Part shown: positions 40,324 through 43,844 of the stretch, piece by piece
Layout: each line of letters starts with the position of its first letter
How positions within the stretch are numbered: position 1 is the first letter of the stretch
Assembly (NCBI GenBank): GCA_965279525.1
Contig: CBDIIB010000005.1
Location: 1,280,001-1,344,000 of the forward strand
Reading direction: 5' to 3'
Length of the DNA: 64,000 nt
Origin: Tagaea sp.
GTDB lineage: Bacteria > Pseudomonadota > Alphaproteobacteria > CACIAM-22H2
Program-made: the position numbers and the translations under genes
Notes under the pieces: model-generated
What the model was told of the DNA's origin: nothing
The model's input: the letters and a program-made list of their open reading frames with translations, nothing else
The model's database searches: none

Positions 40324-41181
40324 TCAGCCGATCCTGAAGTTCATCGCGAGCAGGCCCGCGACCAGCACGAGTGCCGCGACGATCCGCAGCTTTCCGAATT
40401 TTTCGCCGAGCAGGAACGTGCCCATCAGCGTGGCGAACAGCACCGACGTCTCGCGCAGCGCCGAGACATGTGCGATGGCGCCAAGGCTCGACGCCCAGAT
40501 CGCGATGCCATAGCCGATCGTCGCGACGACGCCGCCGGCCGCGCCGCGCCACCAGTACTGGCGCATGTAAGGGTAGATCGAGGGGCCGCGCTTCCACATC
40601 GCGAACACGAAGATCCACGGACCCTCGAGGAGGTTGAGCCACACGATGTAGGACAGCGCGTTGCCCGACAGACGCGCACCCAGGCCATCGAGGACCGTGT
40701 AGGCCGCGATCGTGAAGCCCGTGCATATGGCAAGCCCGATCGCGCGCCGCTCGGCGAAATTCGGGATGCCGCGCGCGAAGGCAAGTCCCGCAATGCCGAG
40801 CGAAACAAGCACCACGCCGACCGATTCGCGGAAATCCAGGAACTCGCCGATCAGCGTGCCCGACATGATCGCGACGAGGGTGGGGCCGAGTCCCCGCGCG
40901 ATCGGGTAGACGAGCGACAGGTCGCCAAGCGCGTAGGCGCGCAGCAAAAACACGTAATAGAAAAGATGGACCGCGAGGGAGCCGAGCAGATAGGGCCAGG
41001 CGGCGGCGTCGGGAAACGGGACGAAAGGCGCCATCGCGAGGCCGATGATGCAGCCGACGAGCATCACGACGCCGAAAGAGGTGAGGCGATCGGGATCCGA
41101 CTTGACGACGGCGTTCCACGACGCGTGCATCAGGGCGGCGAGGAGGACGAGGGCCGCGACGGACGGATCGATCTTTTCCAA
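40324..41181 (-). CDS. EamA/DMT-family transporter
   Basis: AALMHASWNA, GDLSLVYPIARG, ALRETSVLFA; TTG start with GGGAG SD. Confidence 0.9.
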   Translation of the reverse strand: MEKIDPSVAALVLLAALMHASWNAVVKSDPDRLTSFGVVMLVGCIIGLAMAPFVPFPDAAAWPYLLGSLAVHLFYYVFLLRAYALGDLSLVYPIARGLGPTLVAIMSGTLIGEFLDFRESVGVVLVSLGIAGLAFARGIPNFAERRAIGLAICTGFTIAAYTVLDGLGARLSGNALSYIVWLNLLEGPWIFVFAMWKRGPSIYPYMRQYWWRGAAGGVVATIGYGIAIWASSLGAIAHVSALRETSVLFATLMGTFLLGEKFGKLRIVAALVLVAGLLAMNFRIG

Positions 41182-41223
41182 CTGCTCCCGCTCCCGCGTG
41201 CCCGGAAGGCGGATTCTAGCCCC

Positions 41224-41263
41224 AAAACGCAGAAGGGGCGCGGGAGAAGAACCCCCGCGCCCC
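41224..41263 (-). terminator. intrinsic terminator-like hairpin after the micropeptide gene
   Basis: 10-bp GC stem (GGGGCGCGGG/CCCGCGCCCC), extendable by G-U and G-C pairs on the minus strand, followed by TTCTGCGTTTT. Confidence 0.65.
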
Positions 41264-41286
41264 CAAATGCACTGAGCGAAAACCGC

Positions 41287-41337
41287 TTACTTCTTCTTCT
41301 TAGCGGCCTTCTTCTTAGCCTTTTTCTTCGCAGCCAT
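41287..41337 (-). CDS. 16-aa Lys/Ala micropeptide MAAKKKAKKKAAKKKK
   Basis: ATG...TAA, 17 codons; AAGGAG SD 7 nt upstream; hairpin downstream; below ORF-track cutoff. Confidence 0.72.
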   Translation of the reverse strand: MAAKKKAKKKAAKKKK

Positions 41338-41474
41338 GATGTGACTCCTTGTTTCCGATGGTGTCGGACCGGGAAAGGCGCGCCGGAGATCTGAGCGGAG
41401 CTGGGTGTTTAATCCCTGCCCTTTTGACCTACGACGGAGTTGGAGCCCTCCCTGGAGACGATCCGACCGTCGCT

Positions 41475-41504
41475 AGAACATCATTTTGAACAAGGGCATG
41501 TCAA
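41475..41504 (-). promoter_or_regulatory. candidate sigma70 promoter for the leader plus micropeptide transcript
   Basis: Minus strand consensus TTGACA, 18-nt spacer, TGTTCT. Confidence 0.5.
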
Positions 41505-41691
41505 GGAAATTCAATATGAGGGGGGTTGACATCGCCAACCCCACTATCGTTAGGGGGCATCGCATGCTGTTGCGGGAGTCGTCAAACCACCTTCTACAGC
41601 TAGTTAGAGACAGCAAGAAAACCCAAATAAAATCGAGACAATTTGCATGTCGGCATTTTGCGCGCGTGATGAAAATCAACGCGCGATTCCC

Positions 41692-42609
41692 TCACGTATC
41701 GAGGTCGAGAAGGCTCTTTGAAAAACTTTCCGCGTCGAACGATTTCAGGTCGTCGATTCCCTCGCCGACACCGATCAACACCGTCGGAGTCGCGAATCGA
41801 TTCGCGATCGCGACCAGAACGCCGCCCTTGGCGCTGCCGTCGAGCTTGGTGACGACCAGTGCATCGATGTCGACCATGCTCTTGAACGTCTCGACTTGCT
41901 GCAATGCGTTCTGTCCGATCGTCGCATCGAGGACGAGCATCGTGTCGTGCGGTGCAGATGCATCCAGCTTCTTGATCACGCGAACGATTTTCTTGAGCTC
42001 GTCCATCAGGTCGGCCTTGTTGTGGAGCCGGCCTGCGGTATCGACCAGCAGCACGTCGACATCCGCTGCGCGCGCCTTCTCAAGGGCTTCATAGGCGAGG
42101 GCCGCCGGATCGCCGCCCTCGCGCGCGGCGACGACTGTCACGCCGGCGCGTTCGCCCCAGATCTCGAGCTGGCGCACGGCGGCGGCGCGGAAGGTATCGC
42201 CGGCGGCGAGCATCACCGACTTGCCTTCGGCGCGCAGCGACGACGCGATCTTGCCGATCGTCGTCGTCTTGCCGCTGCCGTTGACGCCGACGACCAGCAC
42301 CACGTGCGGCCGACGCGACATATCGGGCGCCCAATTACGCGCGACCGGCGCGAGGATCGCCGCAATTTCGGCGGCGAGGATGCGCCGCACTTCGAGCGAG
42401 GGCGTGTCGCCCGGCAGCTTGCGGGCGCGCACGCGCTCGACCAGCCGGGCCGCGACCGTCGGGCCGAGATCGGCTTCGATCAGCGCTTCCTCGAGCGCAT
42501 CGAGCGATGCGGCGTCGAGCCGGCCGAGATTGAGCGCGCGCCCGATACCGTCGACGAGCTTGCCCGAGGATTTTTTAAGACCTTCCTTGAGGCGGTCGAG
42601 CCAGCTCAC
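41692..42609 (-). CDS. ftsY: SRP receptor FtsY (NG domains only)
   Basis: GVNGSGKTTTIGK, DTFRAAA, DTAGRL, TKLDGSAKGG. Confidence 0.97.
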   Translation of the reverse strand: MSWLDRLKEGLKKSSGKLVDGIGRALNLGRLDAASLDALEEALIEADLGPTVAARLVERVRARKLPGDTPSLEVRRILAAEIAAILAPVARNWAPDMSRRPHVVLVVGVNGSGKTTTIGKIASSLRAEGKSVMLAAGDTFRAAAVRQLEIWGERAGVTVVAAREGGDPAALAYEALEKARAADVDVLLVDTAGRLHNKADLMDELKKIVRVIKKLDASAPHDTMLVLDATIGQNALQQVETFKSMVDIDALVVTKLDGSAKGGVLVAIANRFATPTVLIGVGEGIDDLKSFDAESFSKSLLDLDT

Positions 42610-43844
42610 GCGGGCACCCCGACAAGACCGGCCGGTTCGTGCCCGACGACGCGCACGCGCAGCAGCGTGCCGCGCGGGTGCGCATCGGCAAGGCGCACGC
42701 GCGCCCCTTGCGCATCCAGTCCCTCGCGGCCCGACTTCTCGACCAGCACGTCCGCCTCGCCACCGACCCGGGCGGCCAGATAGCGCTGCCGGGCTGCGGC
42801 GGCAGTCTCGCGCAGCTGGCGCGCGCGGGCGCGCACCGTCGCTTCGGGCAACGGGCGCATGCGCGCGGCCGGCGTGCCGGGGCGGGGCGAATAGGCGAAA
42901 ACGTGCGCGTGGGCGAGACCCATCTCGTCGACGAGGGTGCGCGTGTTCTCGAACGCGGCTTCGCTTTCGGTGGGGAAGCCGGCGATCAGGTCGGCCGCGA
43001 CGGCAATGTCGGGCCGGGCCGCACGCGCGCGCGCGACTGCGGCAAGGACCTGCGCACGGCTGTGCCGGCGCTTCATGCGCTTCAGGATCAGATCGTCGCC
43101 GGCCTGCACGGAAAGGTGCAGGAACGGTGCGAAACGCTGCTCGTGCGCCATCAGATCGAACAGTCGGTCGTCCAGTTCGGCCGGATCGACCGACGACAGG
43201 CGCAGGCGCGCCAGATCCGGAGCGCCGGCAAGAATCGCGGCGCACAGGTCGCCGAGCCGCGGGCGGCCGGGCAAGTCGCCGCCCCATGCGGTGAGGTCGA
43301 CCCCGGTCAGCACGACCTCGCGCCGGCCGGCCGCGACCGCCCGGGCGACGCGCGCCCGCACCCCGTCGATTGCGAGAGAACGCGAGGGACCGCGCGCATA
43401 GGGGATGACGCAGAATGTGCAGCGATGGTCGCAGCCCTGTTGCACTTCGATGAAGGCGCGCGTGCGCCCCTGCGCGAGGCCGATGTCGCTGGCGACGAAG
43501 TCCTGGCGCGCCATGATGTCGGAGACCGCACTTGCGCGCGCGCGCCAGACGGCGGCATCGAGCTTGTCGCGGTTGCCGACCACGGCATCGACTTCGCCAA
43601 GCGCTTCATAGCGCGCCGGATCGAGCTGGGCGGCACAGCCGGTCACGACGATCCGCGCGTCCGGTTTCTCGCGCTTCAGCCGGCGGATGGCGACGAGCGC
43701 ATCGCGCTCGGCTTCCTGCGTCACCGCGCACGTGTTGACGACGAGCGTGTCGCGGTCGCCGGCCTCAGCCAGCAGCGCTTCGATCGTCGCGGCCTCCGCG
43801 GCATTGAGCCGGCAACCGAAATTGACGACGCGGGACGAATTCAT
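42606..43844 (-). CDS. mtaB: tRNA t6A37 methylthiotransferase
   Basis: FGCRLN, NTCAVT, QQGCDHRCTFC; dapF-mtaB-ftsY synteny. Confidence 0.92.
   Translation of the reverse strand: MNSSRVVNFGCRLNAAEAATIEALLAEAGDRDTLVVNTCAVTQEAERDALVAIRRLKREKPDARIVVTGCAAQLDPARYEALGEVDAVVGNRDKLDAAVWRARASAVSDIMARQDFVASDIGLAQGRTRAFIEVQQGCDHRCTFCVIPYARGPSRSLAIDGVRARVARAVAAGRREVVLTGVDLTAWGGDLPGRPRLGDLCAAILAGAPDLARLRLSSVDPAELDDRLFDLMAHEQRFAPFLHLSVQAGDDLILKRMKRRHSRAQVLAAVARARAARPDIAVAADLIAGFPTESEAAFENTRTLVDEMGLAHAHVFAYSPRPGTPAARMRPLPEATVRARARQLRETAAAARQRYLAARVGGEADVLVEKSGREGLDAQGARVRLADAHPRGTLLRVRVVGHEPAGLVGVPA

Follow-up and report, generated by a model that had tools for sequence, protein, structure and literature searches.

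A compact unit for a peptide of 16 residues lies on the minus strand of a stretch of 64,000 nucleotides (nt) from Tagaea sp. (contig CBDIIB010000005.1 of assembly GCA_965279525.1, positions 1,280,001 to 1,344,000), which is called the window here and to which all coordinates below refer. The unit is located in a gap of 510 base pairs (bp) between two genes that are also encoded on the minus strand. Upstream of it lies ftsY (41692..43287), the gene for the receptor of the signal recognition particle (SRP), recognized by its Pfam matches to SRP54 (242 bits) and SRP54_N; the downstream neighbour (40324..41181) is a gene for an EamA-family transporter (Pfam EamA, 60 bits). The FtsY protein encoded here has 531 residues, and its SRP54-type N and GTPase domains begin at residue 244, which leaves a long N-terminal extension. 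Should this extension be acidic, it might bear some relation to the polycation encoded next to it.

The micro-open reading frame (micro-ORF) of the unit occupies positions 41287..41337 on the minus strand and consists of 16 codons, one for Met, five for Ala, and ten for Lys, followed by TAA, as had been proposed in an earlier, sequence-only reading of the window. The peptide is 62.5 % basic, with a net charge near +10, a computed pI of 10.95, and a calculated monoisotopic mass of 1785.186 Da (1654.146 Da once Met is removed), and it contains neither a hydrophobic stretch nor an export signal. The start codon is preceded by a single-stranded, A-rich linker (41338..41362, minus strand) made up of a ten-base block (41360-41351), a six-base Shine-Dalgarno (SD) sequence (41350-41345), and a spacer of 7 nt, in agreement with the strong SD 7 nt before the ATG that had been claimed. 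Nine plus six columns of this linker are invariant in an alignment of five genera, and the ten-base block recurs in the same or similar form 5' of the paralogous copies of the unit in genome G021. Both the minimum-free-energy (MFE) and the centroid fold predict a hairpin at 41278..41311 (minus strand) in whose loop the last four codons for Lys are found, together with most of the stop codon. The 3' arm of this hairpin (41287-41278) abuts a post-stop box (41278-41269); the sequence following the stop codon is conserved across genera. The unit is closed by an intrinsic terminator (41224..41264, minus strand), of which the hairpin (41264-41234) has 13 bp, 11 of them G-C, and the T-rich tail runs to 41224, so that the terminator-like GC-rich hairpin of the sequence-only reading is indeed present. 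Its stem starts 23 nt after the stop codon.

A 21-nt promoter-like box at 41499..41519 (minus strand) combines an A/T-rich upstream element with a perfect -35 hexamer at 41504-41499, the start of which is 167 nt 5' of the ATG; the -35 consensus had been predicted correctly. The promoter consists of these two elements and falls short of the full consensus. Conserved columns in an alignment of ten loci from five genera point to a partly conserved, non-canonical block at 41474..41483 (minus strand) as a putative -10 element. The leader had been put at about 130 nt. This length, at about 125-130 nt, holds only if transcription starts near 41460-41468. The sole sigma-70-like promoter match in the region (41605-41633, plus strand, 9 of 12 positions) is directed towards ftsY and has no obvious gene to serve.

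The sequence-only reading had made its proposal depend on conservation of the frame and the SD in relatives; frame, SD, start, and stop proved to be kept across the whole order. When the 501-nt intergenic region was used in a BLAST search, which is blind to coding, all 20 other genomes of the genus and all four other genera sampled from the family were matched. The part kept between genera in this search comprises the ORF and the 35 nt 5' of its ATG. The peptide is identical in all 20 loci of the genus, and variation in the ORF is confined there to the third positions of codons 5, 7, 10, and 12, every change being synonymous. The four other genera of the family retain the ATG, the frame, and the stop codon; one deletion of 3 nt was observed, Ala is replaced by Thr or Gly, and the last residue varies. 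A degenerate pattern of the first ten codons, in which codon positions 1 and 2 are fixed, was found in 43 of the 50 genomes of the order (13 of 15 genera), as compared with none of the 50 for the reversed pattern used as a control. The matches that were read are ORFs of 12-17 codons, each followed by a hairpin and a T-run. Because the pattern fixes two of the three codon positions, the seven genomes without a match were approached via ftsY, and six of them carry the unit at the same place with a peptide that has drifted yet is Lys-rich. These drifted forms include a change of Ala7 to Ser or Thr, a form of 12 residues, and one of 29 residues that was found in the three small genomes of genus g30 and in which pairs of Lys alternate with Ala, Pro, and Thr. 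The seventh genome, G041 (completeness 93 %, contamination 8 %), yielded no ftsY at E 1e-30. Altogether, a Lys-rich micro-ORF of 12-29 codons is present in 49 of the 50 genomes of the order.

The position and the architecture of the unit are conserved as well. Its ATG is located 278-365 nt 3' of ftsY in all 29 canonical loci measured, and likewise in the six loci that were reached through ftsY. The -35 hexamer shows no change in any of the 25 non-redundant loci with a standard leader in the order, or in g30; its distance to the ATG is 153-169 nt across the order and 183 nt in g30. A hairpin with a T-run follows every orthologous or paralogous copy that was read, its sequence and its distance from the stop codon varying with the genus. 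Genome G009 contains the unit twice, at the very start of one contig (C9:1-136) and on another (C19:726602-726920), which may be an assembly duplicate.

The pattern of change within the ORF is that of a coding sequence. The ATG, the strong SD, the spacing between them, and an in-frame stop codon are kept in all 49 genomes. The spacer codons are free at the third position and specify small residues only. In 39 copies Lys is encoded exclusively by AAG (350 codons) or AAA (36 codons), and no Lys codon has turned into a codon for Asn, Arg, or Ser in any copy read, including those that were obtained independently of the pattern. The 29-residue form of g30, in which the triplet runs are broken into pairs, is still rich in Lys. 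On balance, translation of the micro-ORF is likely, and it is very likely that the unit is a stand-alone expressed one.

Outside the order the unit is hardly met with. Only two of 398 sampled genomes of the class contained the degenerate pattern, both in one genus of family f105, where it begins a Lys-rich ORF of 21 codons that is located away from ftsY (L064 and L065). In the f105 genomes G315 and G153 (L073 and L075), a long open frame follows directly after ftsY with no micro-ORF unit between the two. The hydrophobic composition of this frame suggests a membrane protein resembling EamA; if it is one, ftsY-EamA would be the older arrangement, into the junction of which the unit is placed in Tagaea. 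A scan by composition only, covering about 900 nt after ftsY in 79 public records, recovered the micro-ORF in 17 of 18 records at the genus level, the one miss having a flank of just 202 nt, and in none of 61 records of other lineages, about 13 of which are from other Alphaproteobacteria. The public records file the genus under Tagaea and are all metagenome-assembled genomes. The intergenic BLAST search gave one match, a weak one, among 16 other families (locus L029 in genome G035, from another family of the class), the only one outside the family. L029 encodes a longer protein in which a comparable Ala/Lys/Thr repeat forms the start and many more residues follow; it resembles Lys/Ala-rich proteins of the histone H1 type. 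Extra copies occur within the order: G021 has unlinked paralogous copies of 20 and 29 codons (L026 and L027) and G053 one of 12 codons (L044), each with its own SD and terminator. The ORF of family f105, too, has an SD and a terminator or hairpin to itself. From these copies, the Lys-rich micro-ORFs appear to form a small gene family that is able to expand.

Within its own genome (4,347,249 bases scanned, 66 % G+C) the micro-ORF stands out. No other ORF that encodes Met plus 9-40 residues has a Lys content of 40 % or more. Windows of 12 residues with 8 or more Lys number just two over the six frames, one of them being in the micro-ORF. The other such window is located on the plus strand of contig C5 near 558,073, outside the 64-kb window. 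No second occurrence of the 21-nt promoter box was found in the genome, even with up to 5 mismatches, and the idea of a box common to the genes of the translation apparatus was rejected on this ground. The scarcity of GCT that had been remarked upon was borne out by the genome: this codon accounts for 3.2 % of 106,211 Ala codons in 2,455 long frames with a high GC content at third positions, as compared with three of the five Ala codons of the micro-ORF. A count for ribosomal-protein regions (113 frames, GCT 6.4 %) was set aside, since its ORF filter was too permissive and let in many spurious frames. Codon 2 is GCT (22) or GCA (20) in 42 of 45 copies, and the stop codon is TAA in 37 of the 45, as opposed to 8.3 % of 2,454 genome frames; the 45 include copy L066 of g30, which was started at an internal Met and, as a row of 14 residues with GCG as codon 2, is not comparable. 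Such preferences for codon 2 and TAA are typical of strongly translated genes and would fit a strongly expressed one here. The micropeptide unit is beyond chance.

RNA of the unit is present in public RNA libraries. Public runs were searched with the region 40900-42100, of which the RNA libraries hold a small and equal share, and four RNA-library runs were mapped that stem from four studies, of a metagenome, a bioreactor, freshwater, and mine drainage. Each of the four yielded one whole contig with 0 differences to the window, of 198, 197, 189, and 190 nt, at 41261-41458, 41264-41460, 41260-41448, and 41270-41459, respectively. The minimum extent of the RNA given by the four contigs is 41260..41460, the strand not being indicated by them. 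It reaches from about 40 nt 3' of the -35 hexamer over the leader and the ORF to where the terminator hairpin begins. On both sides the contigs end within 12 nt of each other, without loose ends, and their shared ends are only a weak hint of real RNA ends; the exact ends and the strand are inferred. Among the genomes of the genus only G012 (locus L002) equals the window over this span, the other species differing by at least 2 bases, and the contigs therefore derive from this species or from a very close one. One run also contains a contig with deeper coverage, the flank of which matches the L051-type leader of another genus; copies of relatives are also present in RNA libraries.

The four mapped runs do not cover 40900-41227. 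Positions 41474-42100 are likewise uncovered, except for pieces within ftsY from the bioreactor run (41821-41852 and 42025-42059, at 90-95 %), and none of the contigs listed extends from the unit into ftsY or the EamA gene. The uncovered flanks fit an abundant short RNA next to much rarer flanking transcripts and are not counted as evidence. The same holds for further runs, eleven of RNA (share 0.14) and three guessed to be of RNA (0.30-0.42 of the sampled words), which are no evidence of expression or habitat. Runs X19-X22 of organism A (share 0.76-0.98) may be those from which the assembly was made. In the bioreactor run X5, several contigs match just the Lys-codon tract (41286-41338) at 90-95 % and continue into unrelated leaders with a strong SD; RNAs for genes with a Lys-rich beginning thus appear to occur in other members of that community as well. 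The claim of the sequence-only reading that the unit is dedicated, self-contained, and probably highly expressed gained support from the conservation throughout the order, the biases in codons and stop codon, and the RNA-library contigs. The functions it had suggested, condensation of nucleoid DNA or RNA, binding of polyphosphate, or association with ribosomes, are conjectures drawn from composition.

The RNA is also predicted to be structured. When taken from 41468 to 41226, it comprises 243 nt and has an MFE fold with a z score of -3.3, none of 200 shuffles being as stable. The predicted fold together with the consensus fold delimits a structured 5' leader domain of about 105 nt with a variable interior (41363..41467, minus strand). 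Helix P1 would pair 41466-41459 with 41371-41364; P2, pairing 41452-41445 with 41379-41372, would stack on it and close the 105-nt domain. The extreme 5' end of the RNA is base-paired in this fold and the SD-bearing A-rich linker is open, save for a weak hairpin of 5 bp over the start codon. When given 20 leaders from 12 genera, RNAalifold found without guidance 7 pairs of P1 and 5 pairs in the core of P2, and 4 of these 12 pairs show compensatory changes. On all 26 leaders it gave only one helix of 5 pairs, because MAFFT had put the leaders of g22 and g30 out of register. Over the 26 leaders, 78.1 % of the cells pair in register, as compared with 29-56 % when the strands are slid by 1-3 columns. 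The closing stem of the leader is moderately supported; the support comes from the pair counts and the unguided consensus fold and not from energy, as is set out below.

The interior of the leader domain keeps its length and varies in sequence, and few unpaired bases of the leader are conserved outside a G-rich box and the block that precedes the SD. The leader does not look like a metabolite riboswitch; it could contain a binding site for a protein or peptide, as in autoregulation. A scan of 40900-41900 against Rfam with E up to 10 gave five matches, all far below threshold, the best of them being to sX6 (15.1 bits against a cut-off of 40, E 0.18).

Taken together, the data are best explained by an abundant small mRNA from which a polycation is made that binds a polyanion, an explanation in which we place moderate confidence as a whole. 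The promoter with its -35 hexamer and A/T-rich element would drive the synthesis of an RNA of about 240 nt that ends at the intrinsic terminator. Its first 105 nt or so would fold such that the 5' end is held, in the closing stem, by the nucleotides immediately preceding the ribosome-binding site. This 5' stem may shield the RNA from decay and leave the linker, the SD, and the start codon open. Efficient translation would then give a peptide of 16 residues, or probably 15 after removal of the Met that precedes Ala, with a charge of about +10. As it has no hydrophobic segment and no export signal, the peptide would stay in the cytoplasm, where it would serve as a genetically encoded polycation and attach to a polyanion through its charge. 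The range of variants suggests that charge and small size, not the sequence or the exact length, are under selection, which fits electrostatic binding of a polyanion.

As to the target, we infer that rRNA or the ribosome is the likeliest one, by analogy with the small basic ribosomal proteins bS22/eL41, bL37, and bTHX, and nucleoid DNA would come second. In a more far-reaching form of the same idea, which is tentative and the less probable side of the matter, an oligolysine encoded by a gene would have arisen in the order, would be produced in amounts similar to those of ribosomes, and would be lodged in rRNA, where it takes over the charge neutralisation that elsewhere falls to Mg2+ and polyamines. 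With 15-16 residues of effectively two types of amino acids, this would be the smallest and simplest ribosomal protein known. The structured leader may then be an autoregulatory mimic of the rRNA site. The whole peptide is shorter than the exit tunnel and might even act inside the ribosome on which it was made.

A number of observations weigh against a translated ribosome-binding polycation, or against single steps leading to it. A sigma-70 scan called no promoter on the minus strand of the unit because there is no good -10 hexamer at 16-18 nt, and the -10 region is non-canonical. The RNA-library contigs give neither the strand nor the level of the RNA, and RNA libraries may contain DNA. Loci L033-L065 were found with the pattern that fixes codon positions 1 and 2, which makes the 0/1/9 split of their variable sites only partly independent. 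Runs of AAG and AAA also fit the A-R-N repeat to which Hfq binds; part of the three-base periodicity could be a constraint at the RNA level, and indels of three bases are also expected from slippage in triplet repeats. The covariation score of the 26 leaders was reached by 14 of 500 shuffles, which amounts to moderate support only. The duplex energy between the 5' 48 nt of the leader and the segment before the ribosome-binding site was compared with the energies obtained for 200 mononucleotide shuffles of the 3' segment and for pairings across genera, and the outcome was not significant (mean z -0.67, 1 of 26 below -2), and cross-genus partners pair as well as the true ones. Where the ribosome is concerned, the promoter box is unique, the gene lies outside ribosomal-protein operons, and none of the longer variants scanned had a match to a ribosomal family. 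We also know of no ribosomal protein as short or as simple as this peptide.

The strongest competitor of the polycation is the RNA itself, as an abundant structured regulatory or dual-function RNA of which the purine-triplet tract binds Hfq or pyrimidine-rich targets and the short ORF is translated incidentally or to stabilise the RNA. The discrete short species in the RNA libraries and the structure of the whole RNA, which exceeds that of shuffles, would suit such a molecule, as would the 5' stem, the ten-base block, and the post-stop box, in which conservation is no weaker than in the ORF. The Hfq motif is compatible with the runs of Lys codons, and dual-function RNAs with very short peptides are known from Alphaproteobacteria, among them reportedly a Sinorhizobium trp attenuator RNA with a peptide of 14 residues. 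Against an RNA product stands that ATG, optimally spaced SD, and stop are kept in 49 genomes, and that the spacer codons vary at the third position and stay with small residues. The A-R-N repeat would allow AAC, AAT, and AGN, none of which ever replaces a Lys codon, and the g30 form of 29 residues loses the triplet runs and keeps the Lys. The preferences for codon 2 and TAA are features of translation, and there is no match to an Rfam family. An RNA as the main product is thus considered unlikely, though not negligibly so. Much less credit can be given to a lysine-sensing leader peptide, with ribosomes that stall on the ten Lys codons and so determine whether transcription passes the terminator and enters the EamA gene. 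The his, trp, and thr attenuators likewise consist of a short ORF in which one kind of codon is repeated, a terminator, and a co-oriented gene, and with 10 Lys codons out of 16 the codons of the sensed residue are certainly enriched. Gene order speaks otherwise. The only constant neighbour of the unit is ftsY. EamA is downstream in 14 of 20 loci of the genus. It is adjacent to the unit in L022 and more than 1 kb away in L021 and L023; it was not found downstream in L011-L015 or L024, and L018 is cut by the end of a contig. L011 has a gene for a fatty-acid hydroxylase in its place, nine loci of several genera have a PfkB kinase gene, and in five loci the downstream gene converges on the unit, namely SMR (L041), NUDIX (L048, L051, and L067), or a GSDH-type gene (L071), which brings the downstream gene families to six overall. 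Control by a leader peptide is impossible where the gene runs towards it from the opposite side. In addition, neither the MFE nor the centroid fold contains an alternative antiterminator pairing, only 23 nt separate the stop codon from the terminator stem, and unlinked paralogous copies share the same layout. The classical attenuator is largely refuted by this varying and often convergent neighbourhood, an outcome that leaves it a very slim chance, and judged by its synteny the unit is a stand-alone gene rather than the leader of a neighbour.

Two other explanations accept the polycation and differ in what it does. The peptide might be a nucleoid protein, a minimal DNA condenser like a histone H1 tail or a protamine, as the sequence-only reading had suggested, instead of a binder of ribosomes or RNA. 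Its composition is in line with such a role, and so are a sub-threshold match of a 29-residue variant to Pfam HC2 (E 0.026, 15.1 bits against 40), weak matches of the variant to the NCBIfam family of Rv3852 (E 6.7) and to a histone H2B chain (E 9.7), and the similar Lys/Ala/Thr repeat at the start of the longer L029 protein in another family of the class. Yet all these matches are below threshold and compositional, the DNA-condensing proteins known are all far longer than 16 residues, growing cells contain RNA as their more plentiful polyanion, and the gene context gives no pointer to DNA. A DNA condenser is accordingly rated as improbable, below an RNA product and well above the remaining candidate, a cationic antimicrobial peptide that is exported or released. 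Antimicrobial activity is a property of short polycations; according to part of PMC10085706, the growth of other bacteria in disk assays is inhibited by bS22 and bL37 in free form, and bacteria make non-ribosomal polycations such as epsilon-poly-lysine (part of PMC9606270). The absence of a signal peptide and of a hydrophobic or amphipathic face, together with the lack of a conserved transporter, immunity, or maturation gene near the unit, ftsY being its sole constant neighbour, makes an antimicrobial role very doubtful, on a par with attenuation. Two further candidates were tried and rejected. A small toxin of a type I toxin-antitoxin system would be hydrophobic, and the peptide consists of Met, Ala, and Lys only. 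A substitute for missing polyamines finds no support in this genome, which contains a spermidine-synthase domain (199 bits) and two genes with an Orn/Arg/DAP-decarboxylase fold, one of which is adjoined by a saccharopine-dehydrogenase-type gene.

The favoured reading of a gene-encoded cytoplasmic polycation bears on how such genes can be found at all. Genes below about 30 codons are invisible to gene callers, and the unit was indeed missed by annotation, for which it had been thought too short. A peptide with 62 % Lys is, moreover, destroyed by the trypsin or Lys-C digests of proteomics. In a study of the small proteome of S. meliloti in which trypsin, Lys-C, or no digest was used, nothing shorter than 20 residues was detected by mass spectrometry, as far as the relevant portion of the report goes (PMC10117765). 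Comparative genomics alone revealed here a complete monocistronic unit in 49 of 50 genomes, with a coding signature, a codon bias, and a discrete environmental RNA. The composition-only detector, with 0 of 61 control loci called, could be applied genome-wide in a search for analogous genes in other lineages, and one such gene, of 21 codons, has already turned up in the unrelated family f105 of the class. A purely electrostatic role is a little-explored class of functions for gene-encoded bacterial peptides. With the ribosome as its target, the peptide would bring the Alphaproteobacteria into the growing list of lineage-specific mini ribosomal proteins and lower the size limit of that list; with the nucleoid or RNA at large as its target, it would be a minimal protamine-like factor.

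Comparison with known systems was made by family scans and in the literature. NCBIfam, Pfam, and PDB sequences were scanned with variants of 20, 21, and twice 29 residues, the 16-residue form being below the 20-residue minimum of the scanner, and only sub-threshold compositional matches were obtained for these four. COX24_C (PF08213) had no match in the six-frame translation of the genome with E up to 1, under conditions in which a Corynebacterium control genome was matched, and none among the variants of 20-29 residues. In full-text literature, no account was found of a gene for a ribosomally encoded oligolysine peptide (supplementary tables of small ORFs were outside this search), the first six letters of the peptide did not occur, and the papers listed on lysine-codon leader peptides and polycationic microproteins offered nothing comparable. 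Those listed on polylysine in small bacterial ORFs and on lysine-rich small proteins of the nucleoid were not relevant, and no paper turned up on lysine-rich small proteins in connection with the alphaproteobacterial ribosome. The papers listed under the name of the genus are, by title or abstract, on taxonomy or ecology.

With the leader peptides of amino acid operons, the unit has in common a very short ORF, a small terminated RNA, and a run of one codon type. Those peptides precede a biosynthetic gene that matches their codons, whereas the gene downstream of the present unit varies and is convergent in five loci. SEP5 of S. meliloti is described as a candidate Thr/Lys leader in part of PMC10117765. 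The closest likeness is to bS22, eL41, and mS38, which are also very short, basic, restricted to lineages, and missed or mislabelled by annotation, and the micropeptide gene is in addition strongly adapted to expression by its codons. Proteins of the bS22 family are bound in a cavity of the small-subunit rRNA that h27, h44, and h45 enclose. Sections of PMC10085706 give the basic content of bS22 and eL41 as 55-65 % (62.5 % here) and describe both as buried in rRNA; bS22 and bL37 were recognized only as unassigned density in cryo-electron microscopy (cryo-EM). In contrast to the micropeptide with its 16 residues of Lys and Ala and no COX24_C match, bS22 has 33 residues (PMC10085706, in part), is rich in Arg, and contains hydrophobic positions. 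Small, basic, lineage-restricted additions to the ribosome recur in bacteria, as is exemplified by bL37 in Actinobacteria, bL38 in Bacteroidia, and bTHX in Thermus (PMC10085706, in part). These proteins are longer and have specific folds or contacts, and bL38, of 5.6 kDa, is encoded in a ribosomal-protein operon (PMC11851116, in part); the micropeptide gene is monocistronic and adjoins ftsY.

The HC2 proteins (PF07382) resemble the g30 variant of 29 residues in their repeats of Lys, Ala, Pro, and Thr, as reflected in the E value of 0.026. The score of 15.1 bits stays far from the cut-off of 40, the length of HC2-type proteins is roughly tenfold, and the 20- and 21-residue variants and the second one of 29 residues gave no match to HC2 (one of four variants matched). 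Epsilon-poly-L-lysine is made without ribosomes and is secreted. It and related polycationic homopoly(amino acid)s have isopeptide backbones (PMC9606270, in part). Both this polymer and the micropeptide are bacterial oligo- or polylysines, the latter differing in that it would be an alpha-peptide read from an mRNA and carries no export signal. In conclusion, small basic proteins and small mRNAs are already known; a monocistronic gene for a Lys/Ala peptide of 16 residues that is kept throughout an order is, as far as the searches reach, new and extreme in its size and simplicity.

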